DNA of 64,000 nt from contig OZ024741.1 in the NCBI GenBank assembly GCA_964016885.1, positions 184,264,001 through 184,328,000 of the forward strand. Direction: 5' to 3'. A program made the position numbers and the translations under genes. Below the pieces are notes generated by a model, which searched no databases, was not told the DNA's origin, and worked only from the letters and a program-made list of their open reading frames with translations. This stretch comes from Eledone cirrhosa. Lineage: Eukaryota. Of this stretch, positions 10,837 to 63,555 are shown one piece after another; positions within the stretch are counted from its first letter, which is position 1; each line of letters starts with the position of its first letter.

Positions 10837-11084
10837 ATAATAAAATGTGGAGAGTTAGGACACGAGTTAGGATATATATATATATATATGAAAACAGGGA
10901 GAAAGAGACGATTATTAGGAAGAAAAAATATTGTTTTCCTTTTTTGTTTCTCTCTCTCTTTTTTCTGGGTTAGAAAATGATTAAAACGAAATGTTTTACT
11001 TTGTGTGAAGTGTTAAGGTATTAGTTGATTTATTTATTATTTAACAATGACATTTATTTATCTATTTATATATTTAATGATTGT

Positions 11085-11127
11085 CTATTACCGGTTTCAG
11101 CATTTTTATGCATTATCAAATGATAGT
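11085..11127 (-). ncRNA. Variant-core hammerhead motif in the PLE arm (mirror copy at ~12551-12592 +)
   Basis: TTGATAA-T-GCAT-aaaa-ATGC-T-GAAA-CCGG-TA; the mirror copy has GAAA changed to GAAG. Confidence 0.5.
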
Positions 11128-11568
11128 GAAATGTATTAGTGTGGTGTCGCACATGTTAAACAGAAGGTGCAGAAAGAATAATGTTATATACAAACAAGAT
11201 TTAAGAAGTGAAAAGAAAAAAGAAAAAGGAAAAAAAACGTGCATTATGTGGAACGTAAAAAGTCAATGTGGAAGAAAAAATAATGTTATTTACAAGCAAA
11301 GTCATTGAAGTTAAGCAGATCAAAATGTATTAATATAGCAAGAGTGCTTAGTTAATCCATGATTCCGTGATGGAGGCAAATGGTGGACTGAGGTTTGATA
11401 TGATTTCCCTTTTTAGAGAGTTACTATGCAGGGAGAAGCAATTCTTGCTGAGTGATATTTAATTTATTTAAGAAAAAGGATTAGGTAGGGTGTGAGTGAG
11501 GTAACACTTGTTAATGTTTGATTGTTTGTTGCAGTTTTAGATTGGTCCGATATTTAGAGCATTAAGTC

Positions 11569-12150
11569 TCCACACACAACCCCCTCAACAATGAGGCATT
11601 CGACACCATCCTCCAGAACATTCGTTTACTAAAATGAGATCCAAGAATGAACAATATCCTCCAAACACACAACATCATAAAGAGCAAAAGACAACCCAAA
11701 TCCATAAAAAATATCCTCACACAAGCCAAAATCCAAGAAACCCTCACAATGAACCCTACAGTAACAAAATGCGGAAGGCCCAACTGTGGAATATGCATAA
11801 ATCTAGGACAACGTTTCACAGTTAAACACAACTTTACATGTGTATCTGAAAACCTTATCTATGTTTTGACCTGCTCAGGTTGTCAAGATCACTACATAGG
11901 ACAAACAAAAAACAGCCTCCGTCAACGTATGACCGTCCATAAATCACAAATTAAAATACAGGAATACAGAAAGATTGCATTTAGTGAACATATCGCCATT
12001 TGTGCTCTCAACCAACATCCAAAATTTAAAAATTACCCCACTTACAAATTCATAGACAACTCTATTTTCATCCAACGTACCAATAAGGAAACACATTTCA
12101 TTAATAAATTTCAACCCTTACTTAAGGCTCTAAAAATCGGACCAATCTAA
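11569..12150 (+). pseudogene. PLE C-terminal GIY-YIG endonuclease (Neptune/Nematis-like), RT missing
   Basis: CGRPNCGIC linker, NLIYVLTCSGC..YIGQT..LRQRMTVH..EH (GIY-YIG with CCHH), KETHFINKFQP; in-frame TGA at 11635 upstream of track ORF 11647-12150. Confidence 0.9.
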
Positions 12151-12784
12151 AACTGCAACAAACAATCAAACATTTACAAGAGTTACCTAACTAATCCTTT
12201 TTCTTAAATAAATTAAATATCACCCATCAATAATTGCTTCCCCCTGCATATTAACTCTCTAAAAAGAGAAATCATATCAAATCTCAGTCCACCATTTGCC
12301 TCCATCACGGAATCATGGATCAACTAAGCACCCTTGCTATATTAACACATTTTGATCAGCTTAACTTCAATGAGTTTGCTTGTAAATAACATTATTTTTT
12401 CTTCCACATTGACTTTTCACGTTCCACATTATGCACAGTTTTTTTCCTTTTTCTTTTTTTTTTTTTCACTTCATAAACCTTGTTTGTAAATAACATTATT
12501 CTTTCTGCACCTTATGTTTAACATATGCGACACCACACTAATACATTTCACTATCATTTGATAATGCATAACAATGCTGAAGCCAGTAATAGACAATAAT
12601 TAAATATATAAATAGATAAATAAATGCCAATGTTAAATAATAAATAAATCAACTAATACCTTAACACTTCACACAAAGTAAAACATTTCGTTTTAATCAT
12701 TTTCTAACCCAGAAAAAAGAGAGAGAGAAACAAAAAAGGAAAACAATATATTTTTCTTCCTAATAATCGTCTCTTTCTCCCTGT

Positions 12785-12849
<65 letters not shown>

Positions 12850-12865
12850 GGTATATATCTATCTA

Positions 12866-15800
12866 GCCCGTAGGTGGGGGTTGGGTTGTCGTTCTGCTGA
12901 AAAAACATCTGGGTCTCGCAACACAGACGGTACATTTGGACCCGGAGGGTCGACTAGTGGTTCTGGAACTTGGCAGTGGTGAAGGCGGAGCGTTTAGGTT
13001 GGTAGCCTTCTACGGCCCTTTCGGCTCAATGCGGCCGGACTTCTTCCATCGTCTGGAGACGTTTCTAGGCTCCTTGCTACTAGTGGGGGACTGGAATGGT
13101 ATCCTAGATGCACGTTGGGACTACGTAGGGGCCTGTCCCGATAGAGAGGGGTGTAATAGTCTCAAAGGGTTAATCAGTCGATTTGACCTGGCCGATAGAT
13201 ATCGACTAGATTTTCCGACTGCGCCAACCTGGACTTGGGCAAACCGCAGCGGATCATCTAGGTTGTACAAAGATAGGTTCTTAGTTAGAATTAAGGATAA
13301 GTACTTTTTAAGTTGTCCAAAAATGCGCATGGTTGGCTATTCAGACCACAAGTTAGTGACATGCATGGTCAACCTTGACAGAATGCATATACAGGGACCC
13401 GGTTACTGGAAGCTCAACTTGTCCTTACCGGCAAGTAAGGCTTACAGGGACCGGATTAGCACTTTAGTTAAGGAGCGGTTGACAAGCGCCATCGTCAATA
13501 GCAGGTGGTGGGGATCTCTCAAAAGAGAGATTAGAGTAGTCTCTATAGAATTTAGTAAGGAGTTAGCCTCAAATAGAAATAGGAAGGAAAGGGAGTTGAT
13601 AGATAGTGTAGAAAAGGCAATTAGAAGCGGCGACGTGGCCAGAGTGTTAGCGTCGAGAACGGCCCTGGGCCAGTTCTTCGACGCGAAATACGAAGGCTGC
13701 ATCGTCCGAAGCAAAATACGTGCTCTGGGAAACGAGGGGACCAAAGCTGTTAGCTGGGCCCGCGTGACAGAAGCCAAAAGAGGGAGTAGATCCACTATCC
13801 GGTCTTTGCGAGACCAGGATGGACGGGTGATCCTTGAAGATAAGCAGATGTGCGAGGCTTTCAAAAGCACTCTGCCAGATTGTTCGGAAGGGGCGGGGAG
13901 CCGGTTGGGGAAGTGGACTTCGGTCCATACCTTGACGGCCTGCCGCGTCTCTCGGACAGAGAGGCGAAGTCCTACGAGGAGCCGATTTCAGCCGCTGAGA
14001 TAGAGGACGTGCTGAGCCAATGCGGCAAACGCAAATCCGCGGATCTCGATGGTCTTCCATACGAACTGTATCTAGCTATGCCGGACTTGTTCCCGATCTC
14101 CTCGAGGCGCTCTACTGCAACTGGCAACAGAACGGGAGAATTCCCTGTGCTGTGACCAAGGGCGTAGTCACGCTAGTGAGGAAGGACGAGAACAAGGGGG
14201 ACGATATAATAATTTCAGGCCCATAACTCTGCTAAATACAGAGTTAAAAATTTTGGCCAAGGTGCTAGCAAAGAGGTTGGCGCTTGTCGTGGGCAACCTC
14301 GTAGGAGATGCGCAGACATGTGCTATCCCGTCCAGGTCCATCCACGACAACCTCCACCTCATGCGATACATCATAGAGAGGGTTGGGAACGAACCCGGCT
14401 TTGGTGGGGCCCTGATCAACTTGGATCAATCTAAGGCGTTCGATAGGGTCGACCATGGTTCCTTGGATGCGGTGCTAGCGGCGGCAGGCTTCGGACCCGT
14501 TTTCAGGGGCTGGATCAATGCCATGCAGAGCAGCCGCATCTGCTCTAAGGTCAAGATGAACGGCTACCGCTGGGAGCCGTTCGAAATCGCGCGGTCCATC
14601 CGACAAGGGTGCCCTCTCTCCTCCCTTCTGTATGTAATGACTCTAGAGCCACTGCTGCGGAAGTTGGAGTTGTTGCAGGGCATCCAGTTGGAACCGGGAT
14701 TGTGGAAAGCGGTGTCGGTCTACGCTGATGACGGAACAGTAATAGTGTCGACGGCCTCGGAAATCGGGGCGATCGGCACCTTACTGGAGGAGTACGACAG
14801 GTTTACAGGGGCTAAGCTGAACCGGGACAAGTCGATCGGTCTGCAACTCGGCACGTGGAGGGGAAGGTCGATGCCCTCCGATGGCGTCGTCGGGCGCTGG
14901 GCGGAGGGCCCGGTGAAGTTGCTCGGGGTCTGGTTCGGACCAGACATCCAGGTGGAGAAGAACCGGGGTGAGGTAACGAACAGGGTGTTTGCACTAACCC
15001 AGAAGTGGGCCGAGTGCAAACTGTCCCTGAAAGGTCGGGCGGAGGTGGCGAACACTTATATAGCGTCCGTCATCTACTACCGCCTGACCGTTGTGCCTTG
15101 CCCAAGGGAAACGCTCGCCAAAATGGAGCGCGCACTCTTCCAATTCCTTTGGAAGAAGCGGGCTCCTATGGTGAGGAGATCCATCTGCTGTCAACACCCT
15201 TCGAAAGGAGGGCTGAGGATGCCGTGGCTAATGATACGTAAACACGCATGAAGGCTACGGCACCTCCAGGTATTCGTCACCGGTCAACCGGTGTGGGCCC
15301 CGTTTGTGAGGCAAGCCTTTCCCAGACTCGTCTCACTCACCGAGCTGCAATCCTGGGTCAAGCAAAGACCGAGAAAACTGGGCGCGTGGCACACCGAGTG
15401 TGCCCAGGCGCTCACGGCTCTCTGGCAGGCGGACCCGGCTGTCAGTGGAGAATCCACCTCGTCATTCTATAGAGGGCTGGTGGTTAGCAGGTGCGACGAC
15501 GCCCTCGGAGTAGCCCTAGCCATGGAGGAAGACGAACTGGCCAACCTGTTCGGTAGGACATTCAGCCCGGGCCCCATGGATAACTTCCAGAGGTCCCTGG
15601 CCTGGCAGTGCTACAGAAGGGCTCTGCCCGTTCGAGAAAGGCTCTACAGACACGGGCGCCCGGGTAGGGACCCCTCGAAAAAGATCTGTCCCAGATGCGT
15701 GTGCGACGAGGAAACCGTTGAACACACATTGGTACACTGCTCGGGCATTGCCGATCTGTGGGGCTATGTCGAACAACTGCTGTCAAGGGTGGGACCGATC

Positions 15801-16366
15801 CGGTTGACCACCGAGTCTATTGTAACGATCAAGCCGCCTCCCCTCTTCAAAAACGAAGGAGAGGCGGTGTTTCTGTGCGTAATAGCCATGGCGAAAGAGG
15901 TTGTATGGTGGACGCGTCTGAAAGGACTGAGGTCAGACACCTTTCTCTCTGGCCAACAACTGGTCCGTTTCTTCCCATATCATTTCGGAAGAAGGATCAG
16001 GATGGAGAGAGAGGTGCTGCACCCCAGCCGTTTTTATGAAAGATGGGTGAAAGCGGCGAGAATGGCCCGTGTGAATGGGACTTCACTCTACATCAGACTA
16101 TAGATGAGGAAGATGAAAGACCAAGGGAACACCCCCTCTCTGTGCTCCTGAGGAGAAGGGTTGCACACTTTTTTTCGGGGGTGTGTGCGACCCCACAAGG
16201 CGCCTCCTCTCTATTGAGGATTTAGTTATAAATTTTATTTTGTTATATTTTATTTTATTTTAATATTTTTTTATTGCCTCCTCCTTATTGAGGACGCCTT
16301 GTTATGTAAACTCCCCCATTGTACTTGTCCCACTTTTTGATGCCCTGGTGGCAAATAAAAAGAAAA
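12866..16366 (+). mobile_element. Tx1/L1-clade LINE, 5'-truncated within the APE domain, frameshifted ORF2
   Basis: APE motifs FRLVAFYGP, GDWN, DRFLV, SDH (12936-14003); RT motifs DQSKAFDRVDH, RQGCPLS, YADD (14253-15251); zinc knuckle CPRC..EETVEHTLVHC (15291-16103); 3' AAATAAAAAGAAAA; TATCTATCTA on both sides. Confidence 0.93.
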
Positions 16367-27460: not shown

Positions 27461-27977
27461 AATTTTAGAAATTTAACACATTTATAAAATTTATAAAATT
27501 TATAAAATTAATACAAATAACCATCAACTTTTAAAACCAAAAATTTTGAATCGTTACCCTAAAATAACAAAAATTAAATATTTTGAAATTTAACTACCAA
27601 GGCTATACTACCAATTTAACTACCAAGGCTATACATGTTTATATGTGTCTGAAGAAAATTTGTGCATAAATTACTCCCCTTTAACTCTCCCTCTCTTTAA
27701 TTATCTATCAGTTGCATTCTCAACCTAAAAACTAAAAAAATTATAACTCCAGATACGTCTTTCTCTATAGTCCTACTGTAGTATTCCAGACTTTATAAAC
27801 TCTATAACTGTTACATTAAAGCAATGTTTTTCTTACTCACACCTTCTCTATTGATTCTATTACATTTACACATGTTCTCATTATTAGGGTATAAACATTG
27901 AGTTTTCTCATAAGTTAATCACTACCTTGATTAAATCTTAACCATCTAACATGTCAGGGTATGTCATGTATCATTTT

Positions 27978-28040
27978 ATTTTATCTGATGAGGACGTACT
28001 GTTGAACTTGATTCAAGTACCTCTGAAATATGTATAATAA
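27978..28040 (+). ncRNA. Hammerhead motif in a probable PLE 3' tail ending at (TA)n ~28186
   Basis: CTGATGA-GGACGTAC-tgTTGAA-cttga-TTCAA-GTACCTCT-GAAA-TATG-TA; stem I imperfect. Confidence 0.6.
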
Positions 28041-28181
28041 CATTTAATTGATCACCAGAATATCTATTTTGTTAATATTTGAATTTAATATTAATAACTC
28101 TGGAAAATATTTTACTGTAGATTGCTTCCAATCTACTGTAAAACTCATTCTTTGATGTACTCATTGAATCTTGTTTAACTC

Positions 28182-28277
<96 letters not shown>

Positions 28278-28284
28278 TATATAT

Positions 28285-28516
28285 AACGAAGGAAGTGTGG
28301 TAAGGAACCAGGGGGATCATAACGCACCAAGTACTCAACACTTTGGGTAGTAGAGTGGGTAATAGGAAAATGTTCAGTCCAGAAATAGCCGTCGAAATGG
28401 CTTGAGCTATGCCGTCGGGGTCTTGAACATTTTTCTATTACCCACTCTACTAGCCAAAGTTTTGAGTACTCTGGTGCGTTATGGTCCACCTGGTTCCTTA
28501 CCACACTTCCTTCGTT
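28285..28516 (+). mobile_element. Short (TA)n-inserted fold-back element, copy 1 (~90-bp terminal inverted arms)
   Basis: AACGAAGGAAGTGTGGTAAGGAACCAGG...GAAAATGTTCA is mirrored at ~28423-28516; centre GTCCAGAAATAGCCGTCGAAATGGCTTGAGCTATGCCGTCGGGG. Confidence 0.85.
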
Positions 28517-28586: not shown

Positions 28587-28636
28587 CGAAGGAAAAGTGG
28601 TAAGGAACCAGGTGGACCATAACGCACCAAAGTACT

Positions 28637-28640
<4 letters not shown>
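28585..28640 (-). mobile_element. Inverted solo tail of the same family between two (TA)n tracts
   Basis: GCGAAGGAAAAGTGGTAAGGAACCAGGTGGACCATAACGCACCAAAGTACTCAAT is the reverse complement of the tail at ~28461-28516. Confidence 0.85.
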
Positions 28641-28669
<29 letters not shown>

Positions 28670-35704: not shown

Positions 35705-38700
35705 TTGATTTCTCTATTGGCCACAAGGGCTGACATCAAGAAAATCATTACAGACGGCACAGGGCGGTACAGGACGGTACGATGTGGGTTTTGTGCGTGT
35801 AAAGATTTTTATTATTTATATGAGAAAAGAAAAAAAAGGACATAGAAACATATATATATATATATAAACAATAAAAATGAAAATTGAAACAATGAAAAAT
35901 TCCCCAATAGCGGGGTAACATCCGAGGGTTACTCGTGGCGAAAACCACACAAAAGACCACAGCCACCCTGACCACCAGGGTAAGCGCCCTCTCTCAATTT
36001 TTCCATTTCTCAAACTCCAGGCGTATATTCAGACCATTCTTGCTACATTCACCCACCTTTCAACAAACTTGCTAGAAGGCACCACTTGCCTCTCCATCCT
36101 GATTTTCCTCTTCAAGTGAAACTTGAAAAAGTTAATTAGGGATTTGCTGAAGAAGAAAGTGTCTGTCTTTAACCCTTTTAACCTTGTCCACCACTCAATC
36201 TCTTTCGCCATGGCCACCAGGCAGAGGAAAACCGCCTGACTTTCCTCCTCGAAGGAAGACGGCGAGACCATCTGCACAAGTCGACAACCGGATCAGTCCC
36301 ACACGCGACAGCAACTGTTCGACATAGCTACACATGTCAGCAATGCTCGGGCCCTGGACGAGTGCGTGCACGACGGTTTCGTCGCCCTGCGCGCATCTCG
36401 GACAGGCTCAGCTGACGGCACTTCCGTGCCTGTAGAGCTTATCTCGAACCGGCAGCGCTCCCCGATAGCACTGCCAGGCCAGGGATTTTTGGAAGTTATC
36501 CATAGGCCTAGGGCTGAAAGTTCTCCGGAAGAGAGCAAACAGCTGATCTTCTTCGACGCCCAGGATCTTTCCGAGAATGTCGTCGCTCTTCCCCTCCACT
36601 AGTCCTCTATAGAATGCCGAGGTTGATGTTCGACCGATACTGGTGCCCAGCTGGTAGAGGGCAGTGAGCGCCTGGAGACATTCCAGTTTCCAAGCGCTAT
36701 CCCTCGGTCTTTTTCTGACCCAGGACTGCAGCTCCGTCAAGGAGACGAGCTGTGGGAAAACGTGCCTGGCGAACGGCGACCACACCTGTTCACCATCAAG
36801 GAAGCACCAGAGATGTCGCAGCCTCAGCGCATGTTTGCGCATCATCAGCCATGGCATGCCTAGTCCTCCACGCAACGGGTGTTGACAGCAGATGGATCGT
36901 CTGAACATGGGAACGCGTCCCTTCCACAAAAAGCGGAAGAGGAGGCGCTCCATTTTGGTGAGAGTTGCACTGGAGCAAGGGACGACGGGGAGGCGGTAGC
37001 AGATGACGGATGCGATGTACGCATTCGCCACCTCCTCCCGGCCTTTCAGGGACAGCTTCCTCTCGGCCCATTTCTGGGTGAGGTATGCCACCCTGCTCGT
37101 CACCTCGTTCCAGTTTTTCTCCATCTGGAGGTCCGGTCCGAACCAGACCCCGAGCAATTTAACCTGTCCGTCCGTCCAACGCCCTACGACGCTGTCGGAC
37201 GGCATGGACTTGCCTCTCCAGGTGCCGAGCTGCAAGCCCACCGACTTTTCCTGGTTTATCTTTGCTCCTGTCACCGTTTCGTATTCCTTGAGAGCGGTGC
37301 CGAGCATCTGGACGTGTCTGGTGCTCGACACCCCAACGGTGACGTCGTCGGCATAAGCCGACTAGGATTTCCCGCATCCTAGTTTGCGTGGGACGCCCCT
37401 CATCACCCCCAGTTTGTGCAGTAACGGCTCAAGAGCCAATACGTGCAAGAGGGACGAGAGGGGACAACCCTGGCGGACTGAGCGCCTGATGCTGAACGGC
37501 TGCGCGGGTGACCGTTCACCCCCACAACTGAGCAGATGTCGCTGTATATTGCTGCGATCCAACCCCTGAAAACGGGCACGAAACCGACTGCCTCGAGGAC
37601 CGCCGCCAGGTACCGATGGTCGACCCTATCGAATGCTTTGGATTGATTCAAGTTGATCAGAGCCACACCGGTGCCAGGTACCTTAACCATCCTCTCTCTG
37701 ATGTATCGCATGAGGTGGAGGTTGTCGTGTATGGATCTGTCCGAAATGGCGCATGTCTGCGCCTCTCCCACCAGACCCTTGACGACAAGCGCCAACCTCG
37801 TTGCTAACACCTTGGCCAAAACCTTGAACTCTGCGTTTAGCAGGGTTATGGGTCTGAAATTATCGATAACATCCCCCTTGTTCGGGTCTTTTCTCAGCAG
37901 CGCCACTGCTCCCCGGCTCACAAAACTGGGAATGCTCCCGCTCTGCTGCCAGTTGAACAAGTCTGGCATAAATACATAAAGCTTGTAGGGCAGGCAATCC
38001 AAACCTTGCGCAGTTAGCCATCGCTTCCCGTATTTCACCGGCTGCTATTGGCTTTTCGCAACACTGTGCTGCGGTCGTCGAGAGCCGAGGCAGTCCGTCG
38101 AGGTATGCACTGAAGTCCATGACCCGATCCGGGCCGCCGCCGCTCCCGAACAGTTCAGCAAAGTGCTGCTGAAAGCTTCACACATCCGCTCGGGTTCGAG
38201 CATCACGCACCAGTTTTGGTCAGACAAAGACCGAATTGTGGCCTTATTGCCACGTCGCGCCTCTGCCACCCGGGCCAATTGTACGGCTTTTGACCCTCGT
38301 GTTTCAGAGCACGCGCTCTAGCTCTGATAACGCAGCCTTCGTGTTTTGCGTTGAAGAATTGGTCAAGTGCCAATCTCGCCGCAAGCACGTCGATGCCTGT
38401 CCTAAACGCCTCTTCTAGCTTTCTGACTAGCTCTCCCTCTACTCTATTTTCCTCTATCACTACTCCTTTGCTAAACCTAATCGACTCTACTTTAATTGCC
38501 CTTTTCAGGGCGAACCACCACCTGTTTTTGACGACCGCTCCCTTCAACGCCCGCTTAACTAATACGCTAATCCGGTCTCTGTAGGCTTTGCGTGCCGGGG
38601 AAGACGCATTCAGCTTCCAGTAACCGCGTCCTTGTCTATGAAGTCTGTCTATGTCGATCTTACAGATCACAAATTTGTGGTCTGTGTAGTCGACTATTTT

Positions 38701-40185
38701 AAATTGTGGACAACTTATACTAGCCTTATCTAGTTTTCTGCAGAATACCCTAACGAGATACGATCTGGATGACCCGATGCGGTTTGTCCATGTCCACATT
38801 GGCACATGCGGGTGATCCAGTCGATACCTGTTAGACAGTTCAAAACGTCTGAGAAGGTTGGTGAGGTTCTTTCACCCTCCTCCCCTATCCACTAGCCCCA
38901 CACAATCCTAGCGTGCATCCAAGATACCGTTCCAGTCGCCCACTAACACTAAAGAGCGGGATGTTCCAAGAAAGGTCTCTAGACGTCTGAAGAAATCTGG
39001 CCGTCCTGCCCCTGTTGGGGCGTAGACGGCTACTAGCCTGAAAGCATTGCCTTCGCTGTTGGTCACGTTCAGCACCACCGACTTACCTTCTGGGTCCAGG
39101 AAGAGATCCAAGCCTCTCCGAAAAAGGACGGCAATCCTTCCCCCCGATCCTGGACGGCTGGGAGATGCGTATACATCGTAGCCACCGAAGATCGGTGCAA
39201 AGCCTTGTGCTTCGGAGATTCTGGTTTCACTGATGGCCACCACATCTATGTTTAGTGACCTGAGGTCGTTGAGCAGGTGACCCTGCTTCCAATATGACCC
39301 CAGGCCACGTGCATTTATACAGCCTATTCTGAGTACGGCCATGCTGGATGAGAAACGGGGCAAGTGAGAAAGGGTCTCTTACCTTGATCGTCTGGTGAAG
39401 GGACAGTAGAACCGTCCCTTTCGCTGGTCATGGGTGTTTCCAAGAGGATGTCAGTGTATATCCTCTTGGTAACCGACCCTCTGAAGTCTCCAACTGCGTT
39501 GGGGAATTTTTGTTTTAAAGGTTTGTACTGTTCTATTGAAATTTCGATGATGCTTATGTTTGTCGGGAGAGTTCTTGGTGTTGGTGGGGTGTAGCAGGTT
39601 TTTTCTGTGATGTCTGTGTGCTGCTTTATATATTGTATGAGTTCTTTTTTGCCATGTTTATGGCTGTGTACTTTTTTGGGGGAGGGGTGATTTTGTTGCT
39701 GTTTTCTTCTTGTTGCTGTTTGCTGTGTGTCTTGTTGTGTTTGCGTTGTTGGTGTTTTTGGTGATGGTGGTGGTGGTGTGGTTGTTGTTGTCAGTGGTGC
39801 TTGTGGTGGTGATGGTGGTGGTGTTGCTGCAAGTTTCCTTGCTGCCTTTACCCCTCTTTGTATGCCTTCGCTTTTGGAGGGTGAATATAAGGGTCTTTTT
39901 CTTATTTGTTTTTTATGCCAGGCCGTTTGCCACTTCACTCCCGCCTCAAACTCCATGTCAGATTATGTGGCGTCTGGGAGGGGTATGTGCTCCACAGCTG
40001 TTGGTGGTGGTAGTGGAGTCCTCTTCGGCAATATTGTTACTGGTGTAGCAACATCAAATGTAGCTATTGGTGTTGCCGCCACTGATGATGCTGCTTTAGG
40101 TGTCCGTGGCCTTGGTACGGGTGCTGCGGACGTTGCCCGCCTACTCACCGTGGAAGGGGCTTCTTCGTTTTTTGCCTGCCCTGGC
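35705..40185 (-). mobile_element. Tx1/L1-clade LINE: 3' part of ORF1, full-extent but broken ORF2, and 3' UTR
   Basis: ORF2 starts MAVLRIGCINARGL (ATG 39342) with APE motifs SETR, YAP, GDWN, TDH; RT motifs FRPITLLN, KAFDRVDH, RQGCPLS, YADD; ends RMV-stop at 36029. Pro/Thr-rich ORF1 tail 39324-40185 has a stop at 39963 and overlaps the ORF2 start. The 3' end abuts (AAT)n at 35683-35703. Confidence 0.92.
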
Positions 40186-42390
40186 CCAGGCCCAGATGGT
40201 GTGCAGGGGTATTGGATTAAAAATATAACATCCCTCCACCCGAAACTGACAACCATGTTCAATGACTGCTTGATGTCAGGTGAGGTACCAGAGTGGTTGA
40301 CAAAAGGTACCACAGTTCTGGTAATGAAGGACCGAATCAAGGGTAATGATGTTACCAACTATAGACCTATGACATGTCTGTCTGAAATGTGGAAACTGTT
40401 GACAAGCATTATGTCTGAGGAAATCTACCATCACCTCCACACAAACAACTTGTTACCGGACGAACAGAAAGGATGCCGAAAGAAGTCCCGTGGTACAAAG
40501 GACCAGTTACTTATTGATAAGATGGTAATGAGGAATTGCAAGAGGAGACACACTGGTCTTGCCATGGGATGGACAGACTACAAAAAGGCATTTGACATAG
40601 TGCCTCATTCTTGGATCACCAAAAGCCTAGAGATCTTCAAGGTGGCAGATAACATCAGACAGTTGTTGGGCAAAAGTATGAAGTCCTGGGAAACAGAGTT
40701 AACATCAGCTGGAGAATCCTTGGGAGGCGTGAAGATCAAGAGAGGTATCTTCCAGGGAGATAGTCTGTCCCCTCTGTTGTTTGTCCTTGCCCTGATGACC
40801 CTGACCATTATACTGCGAGAGGTGAGAGCAGGATACAAGTTGGGAAAGGGAGAGCTTACCATCAATCACCTCCTCTTCATGGACGATCTTAAGCTCTTCG
40901 GGAAGAGCGAGAAGGAGTTGGATGTGCTCGTTGACACTGTCCGTATTTTCAGCAACGATATATGTATGCAATTTGGTATTAGTAAGTGTGGAGTCCTTGT
41001 GATGAAGAGAGGTAAATTGACCAGAAGCAACAGAATCCAGGTACCAACAGGTGAGATGATAAAGGAAATTGACACTGAAGAAGGATACAAGTATTTGGGT
41101 GTTCTGGAGGCTGATGACATGAAGAACAAAAAAATGAAGGAATTGATAAGAACTGAATACATTCGGAGAATAAGGAGCGTATTAAAGTCACATCTGAACA
41201 GTAGGAATGCCATAAGTGCTGTAAATTCCCGAGCTGTGTCTATTATTAGGTACAGTGCGGGAATTCTGGGATGGAATGTTGCTGAACAAAATGAAATGGA
41301 TAGGAAGACTAGGAAATGATTGACTATCTACAATATGTTCCACAAGAGGAGTGATGGCGATAGACTCTACTTAAGGAGATCTGAAGGTGGAAGAGGTATT
41401 ATCAGCATAGAGGACTGTGTTCAGATGGAGAAAAACAACCTACACAAATACGTGACTGATAGTAAGGAGCCAATGCTCAGAACTGTACTGAAGGAGAGGA
41501 CAATAGACCAGGGGATGTCCAGGGATGAAATAACAACAAGGAGAAAGAGCAGCCTTCAGGAAAAATCCCTTCATAGTACCTTCTTTGAAAAAACTGAATT
41601 CAGAGATCCACACACATGGAACTGGTTGAAAAGAGGAGACCTTAAAAAGGCTACAGAAGGAATGTTAATGGCTGCGCAAGAGCAGGCCCTCAAAACGAAG
41701 TGGTTGAAACACCATATTTACAAGGAGGAGGCTAGCCCACTGTGCAGGAACTGTGGAGAGAGAGAGGAGACTGTGGCTCACATTGTATCCGAGTGTAAAC
41801 ACCTAGCCCAGACTCACTATAAGGGCTGGAGACATGATGTGATAGGCAGGGTGATCCACTAGCACCTATGAAAAGTAAACAATTTACCACATTCTGAGAA
41901 GTGGTATGAGCATAAGCCAGAGTCGGTGACAGAAAACGATCAGGTGAAGGTGCTGTGGGATTTTAGGATACAGACAGACAAGAAACTGGAACACAATAGA
42001 CCTGACCTGGTGGTTTTGGACACAGAAAAAAGATCGTGCCTGATTGTGGATGTGGCCTGCCCATTCGACACGAAAGTGCAAGAGAAGGAGAGGGAGAAAA
42101 TTAACCGATACCAGGACTTAAAGTGGGAGGTAAAAAAGATTTGGAACTGCCATGATGTCAAAGTGGTCCCGATTGTCATAGGCGCACTAGGTACGATCTC
42201 AAAAAGTTTCCAGGGATGGTTAAAGAAAATTGGCCCCTTCACGCTTTTTGGAACGCTTCAAAAGTCATGCTTGCTGAGAACAGCAAGAACCCTTCGATGC
42301 GTCCTGAATATCTGAGGCTGCAGGTAGTGGCTTGATATTCATTTCAACAAACTTTCCAGTTAACTAACATCAATGACTGAGACTCAAAGA
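40186..42390 (+). mobile_element. R4/Dong-type non-LTR element, copy 1 (5'-truncated, premature stops)
   Basis: PGPDG, YRPMTCL, IFQGDSLSPLLF, FMDDLK, CRNC..H...EC, RHD, RPDL..VD..KINRY; stops near 41317, 41860 and 41869; (AAT)n tail 42393-42492. Confidence 0.9.
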
Positions 42391-42392
42391 AC

Positions 42393-43562
<1,170 letters not shown>

Positions 43563-43574
43563 AATAACAATAAC

Positions 43575-43604
<30 letters not shown>

Positions 43605-43606
<2 letters not shown>

Positions 43607-45829
43607 GCTAACCAACTGGAAATCACCAGGCCCAGATGGTGTGCAGGGGTATTGGATTAAACATTTAACATCCCTCCACCCGAAGCTGACGGCCATGTTC
43701 AATGACTGCTTGGTGTCGGGTGAGGTGCCAGAGTGGTTGACAAAAGGTACCACAGTTCTGATAATGAAAGACCGAATCAAGGGTAATGATGTTACCAACT
43801 ATAGACCTATCACATGTCTGTCCGTAATGTGGAAACTGTTGACGAGCATTGTGTCTGAGGAAATCTACCATCACCTCCACACAAACAACTTGTTACCGGA
43901 CGAACAGAAAGGATGCCGAAAGAAGTCACGTGGTACAAAGGACCAGTTACTTATTGATAAGATGGTAATGGGGAATTGCAGGAGGAAACACACTGATCTT
44001 GCCATGGGATGGATAGACTACAGAAAGGCATTTGACATGGTGCCTCATTCCTGGATCACCAAAAGCCTGGAGATCTTCAGGGTGGCAGATAACATCAGAC
44101 AGTTGCTAGGCAGGAGTATGGGGTCCTGGGAGACAGAGTTGACATCAATTGGAGTATCCTTGGGAAGCGTGAAGATCAAGAGAGGTATCTTCCAGGGAGA
44201 TAGCCTGTCCCCTCTGTTGTTTGTCCTTGCCCTGATGCCCTTGACCATTATGCTGCGAAAAGTGAGAGCAGGATACAATTTGGGAAGGGGAGAGCTTACC
44301 ATCAATCACCTCCTCTTCATGGACGATCTTAAGCTCTTCGGGAAAAGTGAGAAGGAGTTGGATGTGCTTGTTGACACTGTCCGTATTTTCAGCAGTGATA
44401 TATGTATGCAGTTTGGTATTGGTAAATGTGGAGTCATTGTGATGAAGAGGGGTAGGTTGAGCAGAAGTAACGGGATCCAGATACCAACAGGTGAGATGAT
44501 AAAGGAAATTGACTCTGAGGAAGGATACAAGTATTTGGGCGTTCTGGAGGCTGATGGCATAAAGAACAAAAAAATGAAGGAATTGTTAAGAACTGAATAC
44601 ATTCGGAGAGTAAGGAGCGTATTGAAGTCACATCTGAACAGCAGAAATGCCATAAGCGCAGTAAATTCCCGAGCTGTGTCTATTATTAGGTACAGTGCGG
44701 GAATTCTGAGATGGAATGTTGCTGAACAAAAAGAAATGGATAGGAAGACTAGGAAGCTATTGACTATCTACAACATGTTCCACAAGAGGAGTGATGTCGA
44801 TAGACTCTACCTAAGGAGATCTGAGGGTGGAAGAGGTCTTATCAGCATAGAGGACTGTGTTCAGATGGAGAAAAACAACCTATACAAATACGTGACCTAT
44901 AGTAAGGAGCCAATGCTCAGAACTGTACTGAAGGAGGGAACAGTAGGCCAGGGGATGTCCAAGGAAGAAATAACATCAAGGAGGAAGAGCAGCCTTAAGG
45001 GAAAATCCCTTCATAGTACCTTCTTTGAGAAAACTGAATTTAGAGATCCACAGACATGGAACTGGTTGAGAAGAGGAGACCTCAAAAAGGCTACAGAAGG
45101 AATGCTAATGGCTGCGCAGGAGCAGGCCCTCAAAACGAAGTGGTTGAAGCACCATATCTACAAGGAGGAGGCTAGCCCACTGTGCAGGATATGTGGAGAG
45201 AGAGAGGAGACTGTGGCTCACATTGTGTCCGAGTGTAAACACCTAGCCCAGACCCACTATAAGGGCTGGAGACACGATGTGATGGGCAGGGTGATCCACT
45301 GGCACCTGTGCAAAGTAAACAATTTACCACATTCTGAGAAATTGTATGAGCATAGGCCAGAGGCGGTGATGGAGAACAATCAGGTGAAGGTGCTGTGGGA
45401 TTTTAGGATACAGACGGACAAAAAACTGGAACACAATAGACCTGACCTGGTGATTTTGGACAAAGAAAAAAGATCGTGTCTGATTGTGGATATGGCCTGC
45501 CCGTTCGACACGAGAGTGCAAGAGAAGGAGAGGGAGAAAATTAACCGATACCAGGACCTAAAGTGGGAGGTGAAAAGGATTTGGAACTGCCATGAAGTCA
45601 AAGTGATCCCGATTGTCATAGGCGCACTGGGGACTATCTCCAAAGGTTTCCAGGGATGGTTAAAGAAAATCGGCCCCTTCACGCTTTTTGGAACGCTTCA
45701 AAAGGCATGCTTGCTTGGAACGGCAAGAACCCTCCGATACGTCCTGAATATCTGAGGCTGCAGGTAGTGGCTTGATATTCAATCCAACGGACTTTCCAGT
45801 TAACCAACATCAATGACTGAGATTCAAGG
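43605..45829 (+). mobile_element. R4/Dong-type element, copy 3 (5'-truncated just before RT)
   Basis: Starts KLTNWKSPGPDG after (AAT)n; same 3' UTR and AATAACAATAAC(AAT)n tail as copy 2. Confidence 0.93.
43641..45755 (+). CDS. Reverse transcriptase - CCHC zinc finger - PD..D restriction-like endonuclease, uninterrupted 704 aa, N-terminus missing
   Basis: YRPITCL, DYRKAFDMVPH, IFQGDSLSPLLF, LFMDDLKLF, YKYLGV, CRICGEREETVAHIVSEC, RHD, HNRPDL..VDMACP..EKINRY. Confidence 0.88.
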   Translation: MQGYWIKHLTSLHPKLTAMFNDCLVSGEVPEWLTKGTTVLIMKDRIKGNDVTNYRPITCLSVMWKLLTSIVSEEIYHHLHTNNLLPDEQKGCRKKSRGTKDQLLIDKMVMGNCRRKHTDLAMGWIDYRKAFDMVPHSWITKSLEIFRVADNIRQLLGRSMGSWETELTSIGVSLGSVKIKRGIFQGDSLSPLLFVLALMPLTIMLRKVRAGYNLGRGELTINHLLFMDDLKLFGKSEKELDVLVDTVRIFSSDICMQFGIGKCGVIVMKRGRLSRSNGIQIPTGEMIKEIDSEEGYKYLGVLEADGIKNKKMKELLRTEYIRRVRSVLKSHLNSRNAISAVNSRAVSIIRYSAGILRWNVAEQKEMDRKTRKLLTIYNMFHKRSDVDRLYLRRSEGGRGLISIEDCVQMEKNNLYKYVTYSKEPMLRTVLKEGTVGQGMSKEEITSRRKSSLKGKSLHSTFFEKTEFRDPQTWNWLRRGDLKKATEGMLMAAQEQALKTKWLKHHIYKEEASPLCRICGEREETVAHIVSECKHLAQTHYKGWRHDVMGRVIHWHLCKVNNLPHSEKLYEHRPEAVMENNQVKVLWDFRIQTDKKLEHNRPDLVILDKEKRSCLIVDMACPFDTRVQEKEREKINRYQDLKWEVKRIWNCHEVKVIPIVIGALGTISKGFQGWLKKIGPFTLFGTLQKACLLGTARTLRYVLNI

Positions 45830-47943: not shown

Positions 47944-48183
47944 TAGGAAAAAGTATGACCCGACGGCAGAGCTCAAGCCGTTTCGACGGCTATTTCTGGA
48001 CTAAATTAAAATTTTTAGCCTGGCTAAAAAATTCTAAAAATTCTAATTTAGTCCAGAAATAGCCGTCGAAACGGCTTCAGCTCTGCCGTCGGGTCATACT
48101 TTTTCCTATTTCCCACTCTACTACCCTAAGTATTGAGTACTCTGGTGCGTTATGATCCATCTGGTTCCTTACCACGATTCCTT

Positions 48184-48186
<3 letters not shown>
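47944..48186 (+). mobile_element. Short (TA)n-inserted fold-back element, copy 2
   Basis: TAGGAAAAAGTATGACCCGACGGCAGAGCTCAAGCCGTTTCGACGGCTATTTCTGGACTAAATT mirrored at ~48045-48108, then the family tail ...GGTGCGTTATGATCCATCTGGTTCCTTACCAC. Confidence 0.88.
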
Positions 48187-48221
<35 letters not shown>

Positions 48222-48353
48222 GTGTGGTTTTTTTTTACAAAATGAAAAATAACCGAGGGGTCCTACACGAGTGAAAGTATAAAGAAAAAGAGATGAAATC
48301 GAAAATGCAACTGAAGTCTTATTTTTAAAAAAAATATATATATTTATTTGGTT

Positions 48354-49697: not shown

Positions 49698-49896
49698 TAG
49701 GAAAAGAGTCAGAGCCCGACGGCTGAGGTTTCGACTGCTAAATCGGAACTCAGTTTGGATCTAGCTGTCGAAACAGCCGGAGCTCAGCTGTCGGGGTCCT
49801 GACTCATTTCATTTCCTATTACCCAGTGTACCTCCCTAAGTATTGAGTACTCTGGTGCGTTATGGTCCACCTCGTATCTTACCACACCCTCTTTGT

Positions 49897-63167: not shown

Positions 63168-63209
<42 letters not shown>

Positions 63210-63213
<4 letters not shown>

Positions 63214-63376
63214 AACGAGTAGGACCCCGACGGCTGAGCTCAAGCCGTTTCGACGGGTAATTCAGTCCAGAATTAACCGTCGAAACGGCTTGAGCTCAGC
63301 CGTCGGGGGTCCTACTCGTATTGAGTTCTTTGGTGCGTTATGGTCCACCTGGTTCCTTACCACATTTCTTTCGTTA
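63210..63376 (+). mobile_element. Short (TA)n-inserted fold-back element, copy 4
   Basis: ACGAGTAGGACCCCGACGGCTGAGCTCAAGCCGTTTCGACGGGTAATTC-agtcca-GAATTAACCGTCGAAACGGCTTGAGCTCAGCCGTCGGGGGTCCTACTCGT, plus the family tail. Confidence 0.88.
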
Positions 63377-63513
63377 TATATGTATATATATATATATAAA
63401 TATATATCCCTTAACGACATCTTCTTATATATATATATATTTATCCTTATTGAGCCTTCTTTGGATTTTAGTCTTCACATTTATTATCATTACTATATAT
63501 ATATATATGATAT

Positions 63514-63555
63514 ATTCTTATTGTCACTTTATATATATAAAGTGACAATAAGAAT
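63514..63555. repeat. Perfect 42-bp palindrome centred on TA repeats
   Basis: ATTCTTATTGTCACTTTATAT | ATATAAAGTGACAATAAGAAT. Confidence 0.95.

Follow-up and report, generated by a model that had tools for sequence, protein, structure and literature searches.

The copy at 63210 in the window, the 64,000-nucleotide stretch of the Eledone cirrhosa genome analysed here, sits in a (TA)n microsatellite and turns into an inverted copy of itself close to what looks like one half of a hammerhead ribozyme. It raises the question of what kind of element leaves such palindromes, why they hold only half of a ribozyme, and how their two arms come to be joined.

The copies in the window and their parent element

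A sequence-only reading of the window had listed four related copies in (TA)n, and these were recovered at 28286-28515, 47946-48186, 49700-49896 and 63212-63374. In agreement with that reading, all four share the 3′ tail and the GAAA, stem III, GUC and stem I 3′ strand of a type I hammerhead, three of the four begin at a common (TA)n-GGAA point, and none carries the hammerhead 5′ half, the core pattern [CT]TGA.[AG]AG being absent from both strands in 4/4 copies. Among the best 150 of 207 matches in an Rfam scan of the window there was no hammerhead family, only hairpin and microsatellite matches, and a repeat scan of the window was dominated by microsatellites. Positions within the element are numbered from the last base of its long 3′ end (0). 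On this scale the ribozyme core starts at -182 and GAAA at -119, the stem II 3′ strand occupies -131 to -120, the predicted ribozyme cut falls between -97 and -96, and the short 3′ end is at -80. The parts of the four copies are as follows.

63170..63211, no strand: (TA)n target microsatellite left of copy 63210; the TA-rich run resumes at 63375
63212..63263, minus strand: copy 63210, inverted arm from the short end (-80) to -131, no tail
63264..63374, plus strand: copy 63210, forward arm from -137 to the long end
63282..63310, plus strand: copy 63210, type I hammerhead 3′ half
63282-85, plus strand: copy 63210, GAAA; stem III at 63286-89/63299-302
63302-04, plus strand: copy 63210, GUC, predicted cut after 63304; stem I 3′ strand at 63305-10
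63319..63374, plus strand: copy 63210, rest of the 80-nt tail between the two 3′ ends, on one arm only
47946..48023, minus strand: copy 2 (47944, sister subfamily C), inverted short-ended arm, -80 to -158
48035..48186, plus strand: copy 2, forward tail-bearing arm, about -152 to the long end
49700..49751, minus strand: copy 3 (49698, older subfamily D), inverted short-ended arm to the -137 equivalent
49752..49896, plus strand: copy 3, forward tail-bearing arm, -137 equivalent to the long end
28286..28375, minus strand: copy 4 (28285), inverted tail-bearing arm, long end to about -89
28376..28515, plus strand: copy 4, forward arm, -137 (or -140, shared TTC) to the long end
28587..28641, minus strand: separate tail-only stub (-55 to 0) of the same family, in the same TA run as copy 4

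The inverted arm of copy 63210 contains the stem II 3′ strand, GAAA, stem III, GUC and the stem I 3′ strand, and its forward arm begins at the A of a TTAGTC/TCAGTC motif, the putative transcription start. Compared with another genomic copy (L061), the forward arm has a 28-nt internal deletion at 63318/63319 that removes the short-end site. The inverted arm of copy 3 ends in one extra base, 49751, which is the complement of an extra G, and the inverted arm of copy 4, which holds no ribozyme sequence, makes that copy one of the rare long+long pairs. Arm-to-arm variants in copy 63210 were considered as proof of two templates and dropped, since query ascertainment explains them.

The copies had been suspected to be the 3′ ends of Penelope-like elements (PLEs), and this proved correct: long relatives bear an ORF with reverse transcriptase (RT) and GIY-YIG domains, together with the missing ribozyme half. 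Walking upstream through the genome's own copies led from the stubs into a 3′ UTR of about 1.3 kb, then a GIY-YIG domain and then an RT, and tandem arrays provided units of 3,531-3,544 nt with an open 717-aa ORF whose ATG lies 94 nt behind the tail. This single ORF has YRDD at 348 in the RT and VIY..YIG at 591 in a C-terminal GIY-YIG domain, with one Cys between VIY and YIG; it further contains RWR at 37, DKT at 117, a CxCX5C linker at 572, CxxC at 670 and CxH at 698, and no CCHH. Pfam and PDB sequence searches with the 717-aa ORF gave no match. The Hydra clade has been defined by RWK-type, DKT, CxCX5C and CxxC/CxH features (PMC8557442). The (TA)n insertion preference that also marks this clade was found here, and pLTRs are evident from the tandem and partial-tandem layout (317 exact tail-ORF junctions, and L097 and L359-L361 among individual loci). 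Judging from these motifs and from its by-eye likeness to Hydra-1_Obim, the parent is a Hydra-clade EN+ PLE, a new family within a known clade that follows a known insertion layout. Assignment to the Neptune clade was rejected, the CCHH motif and the CX2-5CxxC linker both being absent from the ORF.

The ORF aligns motif by motif, by eye, with that of Hydra-1_Obim (Craig et al. 2021, PMC8557442), and the RWK-like RWR, DKT, (TA)n target and 3′-region hammerhead are all as described for the clade (PMC8557442). The element differs from the clade as portrayed there in its 3.5-kb unit and 3′ UTR of about 1.3 kb, where Hydra elements are given as "generally <3 kb", and in its clear pLTRs and tandem arrays. 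The loci L359, L360 and L361 are near-identical head-to-tail arrays of 3.5-kb units, with open ORFs in L359 and L361 and, in L360, a premature stop common to both visible units.

The element's two 3′ ends are separated by 80 nt, and TA follows each of them. Exact junctions of the main subfamilies number 9,170 for the short end and 21,662 for the long end genome-wide, against 0 matches in a reversed-pattern control for the junction searches, and exact short ends number 4,544 in subfamily C and 636 in subfamily D.

The hammerhead and the ends of the arms

Long relatives contain a whole type I hammerhead, as anticipated from the half seen in the window, although its core is UUGANAA, with a U3-A8 pair, and not the expected CTGANGA. 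Among 4,306 exact matches to the 5′ core region, 3,238 read TTGANAA and only 2 have the CUGANGA that is canonical for type I hammerheads, the remainder being mostly CTGANAA. TTGANAA is also the core in subfamilies C and D, and across four subfamilies 38/43 aligned copies have U3-A8, with G, T, A or C at the free N7. The core was alternatively read as CUGAGA with N7 deleted; this was rejected, given that UUGANAA with a free N7 dominates. The U3-A8 variant is known from Cercyon PLEs (PMC4209133). Both sides of stem II differ between subfamilies A-C and D, that is, they covary. The unconstrained minimum-energy fold of one natural copy (L266) is the hammerhead three-way junction, while in three of the four natural copies folded (L262, L264 and L270) the hammerhead is not the minimum-energy structure. 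Hydra-1_Obim has a ctgaagag core and an 8-nt loop II, in contrast to the U3-A8, 4-bp stem III and 33-nt loop II found here (PMC8557442). About a quarter of core matches in the main subfamilies read CTGANAA, in which C3 and A8 are unpaired; such ribozymes are predicted to be impaired, yet the subfamily with this core is abundant. A CTGAGAA subfamily with C3 and A8 unpaired (L031-L060, L258, L269 and L270) has about 1,000 exact matches, and if it is ribozyme-inactive and amplified anyway it offers a natural test of the need for cleavage.

The hairpin ttc-AGTCCA-gaa, seen in two of the window copies and taken in the sequence-only reading for stem II, is instead the junction of the two arms; the stem II 5′ strand of long copies is found 44 nt upstream, beyond a loop of about 33 nt. 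The further claim that every copy folds back at stem II holds for 63210 (-131/-137) and 49698 (about -137 in both arms) and fails for 47944 (-158/-152) and 28285.

Arm ends were mapped in the first 70 of the 9,170 short-end and the first 70 of the 21,662 long-end places along contig 1, passing over 12 listed long-end places whose insertion was already sampled; dropping one duplicate (L151) left 139 loci. Both these and the loci of subfamily C were drawn from one chromosome, within its first 50 Mb, and every sample consists of exact matches to younger subfamilies. An adjacent inverted arm was present in 97/139 loci, of which 95 paired a short with a long end, 1 short with short and 1 long with long, so that 95 loci have a one-sided tail, of 80 nt as against the usual 30-40 for PLEs. 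The fold-back points do cluster near stem II, as had been supposed: 144 of 236 arms end at -129 to -142, the others ending at -143 to -150 (10), -151 to -390 (3), farther still (9), -99 to -128 (39), -94 to -98 (10) or nearer the 3′ end (21). The same hotspot takes 18/30 arms in subfamily C (plus 3 scored at -144 by chance alignment) and 14/30 in subfamily D, despite their different loop II sequences, and non-inverted copies also stop there (11/42). Junctions in the 95 pairs show 0-6 nt of microhomology in 55 cases and inserts in 40, and 87 of them are distinct, the commonest being seen 3 times. Runs of A or T occur on either or both arms of L119, L130, L194, L199 and L202; in these five loci and in L243 such runs, 7-30 nt long, stand where arms end near -140, and they possibly reflect RT stuttering or tailing at the template end.

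What lies at -137 is suggested by 214 TA-flanked, non-inverted ends at this position. By hand count of the first 100, 55 have a G immediately before A(-137), 32 the templated T, 7 an A and 6 a C, and G also precedes A(-132) in 26/68. Position -132, chosen initially as the control for the extra G, was not neutral and was replaced by -126/-103, where G precedes the A in 1/100 listed of 135, and by C(-134), with 0/16; the excess at -137 is 55/100 versus 1/116 (p 2e-22). Inside inverted pairs, which weakens the case, the signal is faint: the G was seen in 9/71, a figure partly explained by the partner arm. In L1 insertions an extra 5′ G reflects capping (PMC11702581), and the extra G at -137 and -132 is likewise likely to be a cap signature, marking a capped RNA 5′ end. 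A TTAGTY/TCAGTY motif near -137 is kept across subfamilies with differing loops. It resembles an initiator, and PLE pLTRs have been described as containing a promoter with an Inr-like motif (PMC8557442; PMC3846280; PMC2377424). A splice acceptor at the AG of -137/-136 was discarded as an explanation, with many ends reaching -138 to -141 and no common upstream exon.

A smaller class of ends lies at the predicted cut. Counted by hand, 56 TA-flanked ends in -93 to -105, a tally whose gap limit under-counts far positions, comprise 20 at -96, 2 at -97/-98, 10 at -99 to -105, 18 at -93 to -95 and 6 made ambiguous by CpG decay and a G run; in subfamily D, 7/30 arms end at -96 to -98. From the genomic ends at -96 we infer that the U3-A8 hammerhead may cut in vivo, presumably as a minor route, since only 10/236 arms of the main sample end at -94 to -98.

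Origin of the head-to-head arms

The four copies are short head-to-head insertions of the 3.5-kb Hydra-clade PLE, in which both strands of the cut (TA)n target probably primed cDNAs that ran off the 5′ end of the RNA and were then joined. The endonuclease would cut both (TA)n strands, as PAc of Anolis does in vitro, where both strands are cut and extended from two internal RT starts bracketing the tail (PMC11167929). The two target 3′ ends would then pair with TA at the putative RT starts of the RNA, 0 for one and -80 for the other, and both RTs would proceed until the template ended on its 5′ side, in most cases at the capped start in loop II and now and then at a cut end, after which the two cDNA ends would be trimmed or tailed and end-joined with 0-6 nt of microhomology or short inserts. 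Capped transcription would start at -137, with a minor start at -132 and possibly another at -141, all inside hammerhead loop II; ends at -96 would come from RNA cut by the U3-A8 hammerhead; and long copies would stem from a template that continues upstream, by read-through or as circular RNA. A transcript starting inside the ribozyme would explain why the stubs hold only its 3′ half. Two of the four window copies (28285, and 47944, which is joined 15-20 nt upstream of the main hotspot) depart from the common pattern, which counts against the run-off reading.

A second pass through the same sequence separates an RNA end from an obstacle at loop II. Of the 317 exact tail-ORF junctions, 70 were examined, and 45 of these copies extend more than 1.3 kb into the ORF (four of them in one array). 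In 15 of the 45 the copy exceeds the flank retrieved; in the other 30 the 5′ start is defined and lies between -49 and -1452, yet none of these starts at -129 to -142, contrary to the stalling at stem II that had been proposed. By -142, 79/96 sampled arms that reach -129 have stopped, versus 0/27 long copies (p 6e-16), a comparison that may be weakened by enrichment of processive RTs among long copies. Five long copies from a separate search start at about -700, -214, beyond -217, -124 and -88. The other 25 tail-ORF copies are short direct tandems, in which a unit ending at +46 to +842 is followed by another unit; by hand count the next unit starts at -133 to -140 in 13, at -96 in 7 and elsewhere in 5, and these tandems are likely to be template jumps from RNA 5′ ends. 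Direct tandems of this kind are found at L290-L295, L305, L311, L313, L315, L317, L318, L322, L323 and L328 and at L333, L339, L341, L351, L354 and L356, a pLTR stub and the first 46-822 nt of the ORF preceding the second stub.

These results bear most directly on the unlikely alternative that two cDNAs are indeed joined, with the stop at -129 to -142 imposed at loop II by a bound protein or by the structure of the RNA. Folding predicts an extended stem II at about -136 to -157, and in L108-L110 one arm runs for 2.6 kb while the other stops at -131 to -149, as an obstacle would allow. Such a block should nonetheless recur on the second pass, where 0/27 long copies stop, and it accounts poorly for an extra G that is position-specific, for a hotspot that persists in subfamilies with different loops, and for template jumps that begin at the same positions.

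The sequence-only reading had proposed a single cDNA that, having stalled at stem II of the ribozyme, snaps back and is reconnected to the target through TA microhomology. This we now regard as improbable, and as contradicted already unless insertions often suffer large one-sided deletions afterwards. It does predict the pairing of short with long ends (95/97), the clustering of junctions next to stem II, and private variants within a copy. The arms of one copy are closer to each other than to those of other copies, as had been asked of the family (0.9 versus 2.4 differences per 40 nt), and private variants common to both arms were found in L136, L137, L146 and L229; such likeness fits one RNA or one source locus, and snap-back predicts it too. 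Against snap-back, the short-ended, tail-less arm is longer than its supposed template in 46/95 pairs, and in 6/26 long loci mapped (L064, L103, L106, L108, L109 and L110) it is longer by 2-3 kb, the long-ended arm being the longer in L099, L101, L107 and L113. Even the most favourable split leaves a loop of 0-2 nt in 18/95 pairs and of 3 or more in 31/95, and in 7/95 the long arm falls short of the short end. Short ends also occur on uninverted long copies (L035, L037 and L097), A runs stand at the short-ended arm's own 3′ end (L130 and L202), and the stops sit in loop II, past the read-through of stem II, without recurring on a second pass.

Self-priming on an antisense template, proposed for rotifer Penelope, is a published reading of head-to-head PLE palindromes (PMC3846280); we give it very little weight here, as it leaves unexplained the extra G at sense-strand A positions, the sense-strand cut-site ends and the arms without common sequence. 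Amplification of the palindromic unit in its own right, as a non-autonomous element or TIR MITE, has the very high copy number and fixed outer ends in its favour but is extremely unlikely: 87 distinct junctions in 95 pairs exclude an amplifying palindrome, and the ends are asymmetric and those of a PLE, with arms colinear with an RT-bearing element.

The joining of two run-off cDNAs has a more speculative extension that concerns the ribozyme itself and that we consider possible, with the balance against it. In this split-ribozyme model, transcription would start in loop II, stubs would come from the capped RNA, and long copies and arrays from a circle. The 5′ end of the capped RNA would carry the substrate half only, and priming at nearby internal sites would yield strong-stop palindromic stubs, tens of thousands of them. 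The 5′ half in the 3′ pLTR would pair with the substrate half and cut at -96, and ligation of the ends would give a unit-length circle, a second template for long copies and tandem arrays. The circle rests on a two-strand prediction, in which the strand from -137 co-folds with the upstream half into a hammerhead. Since long copies never end at the -137 start, their template likely continues upstream. That copies do not stop there on a second pass speaks for two classes of template and is relevant to the proposal of a circular RNA. If the split-ribozyme model is true, the stubs would preserve in the genome a trace of PLE ribozymes cleaving in vivo, and the split ribozyme would act as a switch between abortive and productive transposition.

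Related systems and neighbouring elements

Inverted PLE insertions with a one-sided tail are already in print (PMC8557442, PMC3846280, PMC4209133). The family shares with the standard PLE insertion its head-to-head arms, tail on one arm and partial tandems, and differs in its 80-nt tail as against 30-40 bp (PMC8557442; PMC3846280; PMC2377424) and in consisting mostly of minimal stubs with both arms ending at one position. As far as their available text goes, PMC8557442, PMC3846280 and PMC2377424 make no link between the junction and a capped end of the RNA, and in the literature searched we found no paper that connects PLE inversion junctions with a capped start or cut site. PAc resembles the family in having a hammerhead just upstream of the RT starts (Frangieh et al. 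2024, PMC11167929), whereas it belongs to the Poseidon clade and has a C3-G8 core (PMC11167929). The RNA-seq reported for PAc has no reads starting or ending at the cut (PMC11167929), while genomic ends lie at the predicted cut here. PLE hammerheads in general (Cervera and de la Pena 2014, PMC4209133) likewise place a type I motif in pLTRs, show U3-A8 covariation and occur as opposite-strand motifs 100-700 bp apart, and a circular template was proposed for them; here, in contrast to that account, stem III has 4 bp and a palindromic loop, a monomer can fold (L266), and the putative transcription start falls in loop II, dividing the motif.

L1 twin priming is alike in that a second target end primes on the RNA and the arms are joined through microhomology or inserts. 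In L1 the poly(A) is primed first and then a variable upstream site, giving non-overlapping inverted segments, whereas two fixed internal starts 80 nt apart would give the overlapping palindromic arms found here. An extra G at capped 5′ ends is a further point of likeness to L1 (PMC11702581).

The origin of inverted and tandem PLE insertions and the cutting of PLE hammerheads in vivo are both named as open questions in PMC8557442, PMC11167929 and PMC4209133. The end statistics reported here make these two questions directly testable, for the family offers positions defined to the base (0 and -80 for the putative RT starts, -137 for the likely capped start and -96 for the predicted cut), and its intact tandem ORFs suit an in vitro system. 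If transcribed, the tens of thousands of short perfect hairpins would be ready double-stranded RNA; octopus is reportedly rich in double-stranded RNA-type structures and A-to-I editing (PMC5625713).

Other elements are present in the window. Another PLE insertion in (TA)n occupies 10890-12790, and its inverted arms, at about 10923-11540 and 12140-12754, enclose a GIY-YIG fragment at 11638-12150 (plus strand). This fragment has a CxxCxxC linker, and two Cys separate IY from YIG, features that point to a different clade, of the Neptune/Naiad type. Two broken non-LTR elements with AP-endonuclease and RT frames, at 12867-16103 (plus strand) and 36408-39378 (minus strand), are about 75% alike, and we take them to be L1/Tx1-like. 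Three adjoining truncated RT elements with a C-terminal restriction-like endonuclease, presumably R4/Dong-like, lie at 40070-45755 (plus strand), separated by (AAT)n runs, and the last has a 733-aa open frame. The flanks at 48216-48350, 63394-63470 and 27930-28185 recur beside family members elsewhere (L003, L009, L011, L018 and L043 among them), which suggests that other repeat families share or supply (TA)n targets. Finally, a small perfect inverted repeat around a TA run, with arms TTCTTATTGTCACTT, lies at 63517-63555, 140 nt downstream of the 63210 copy.
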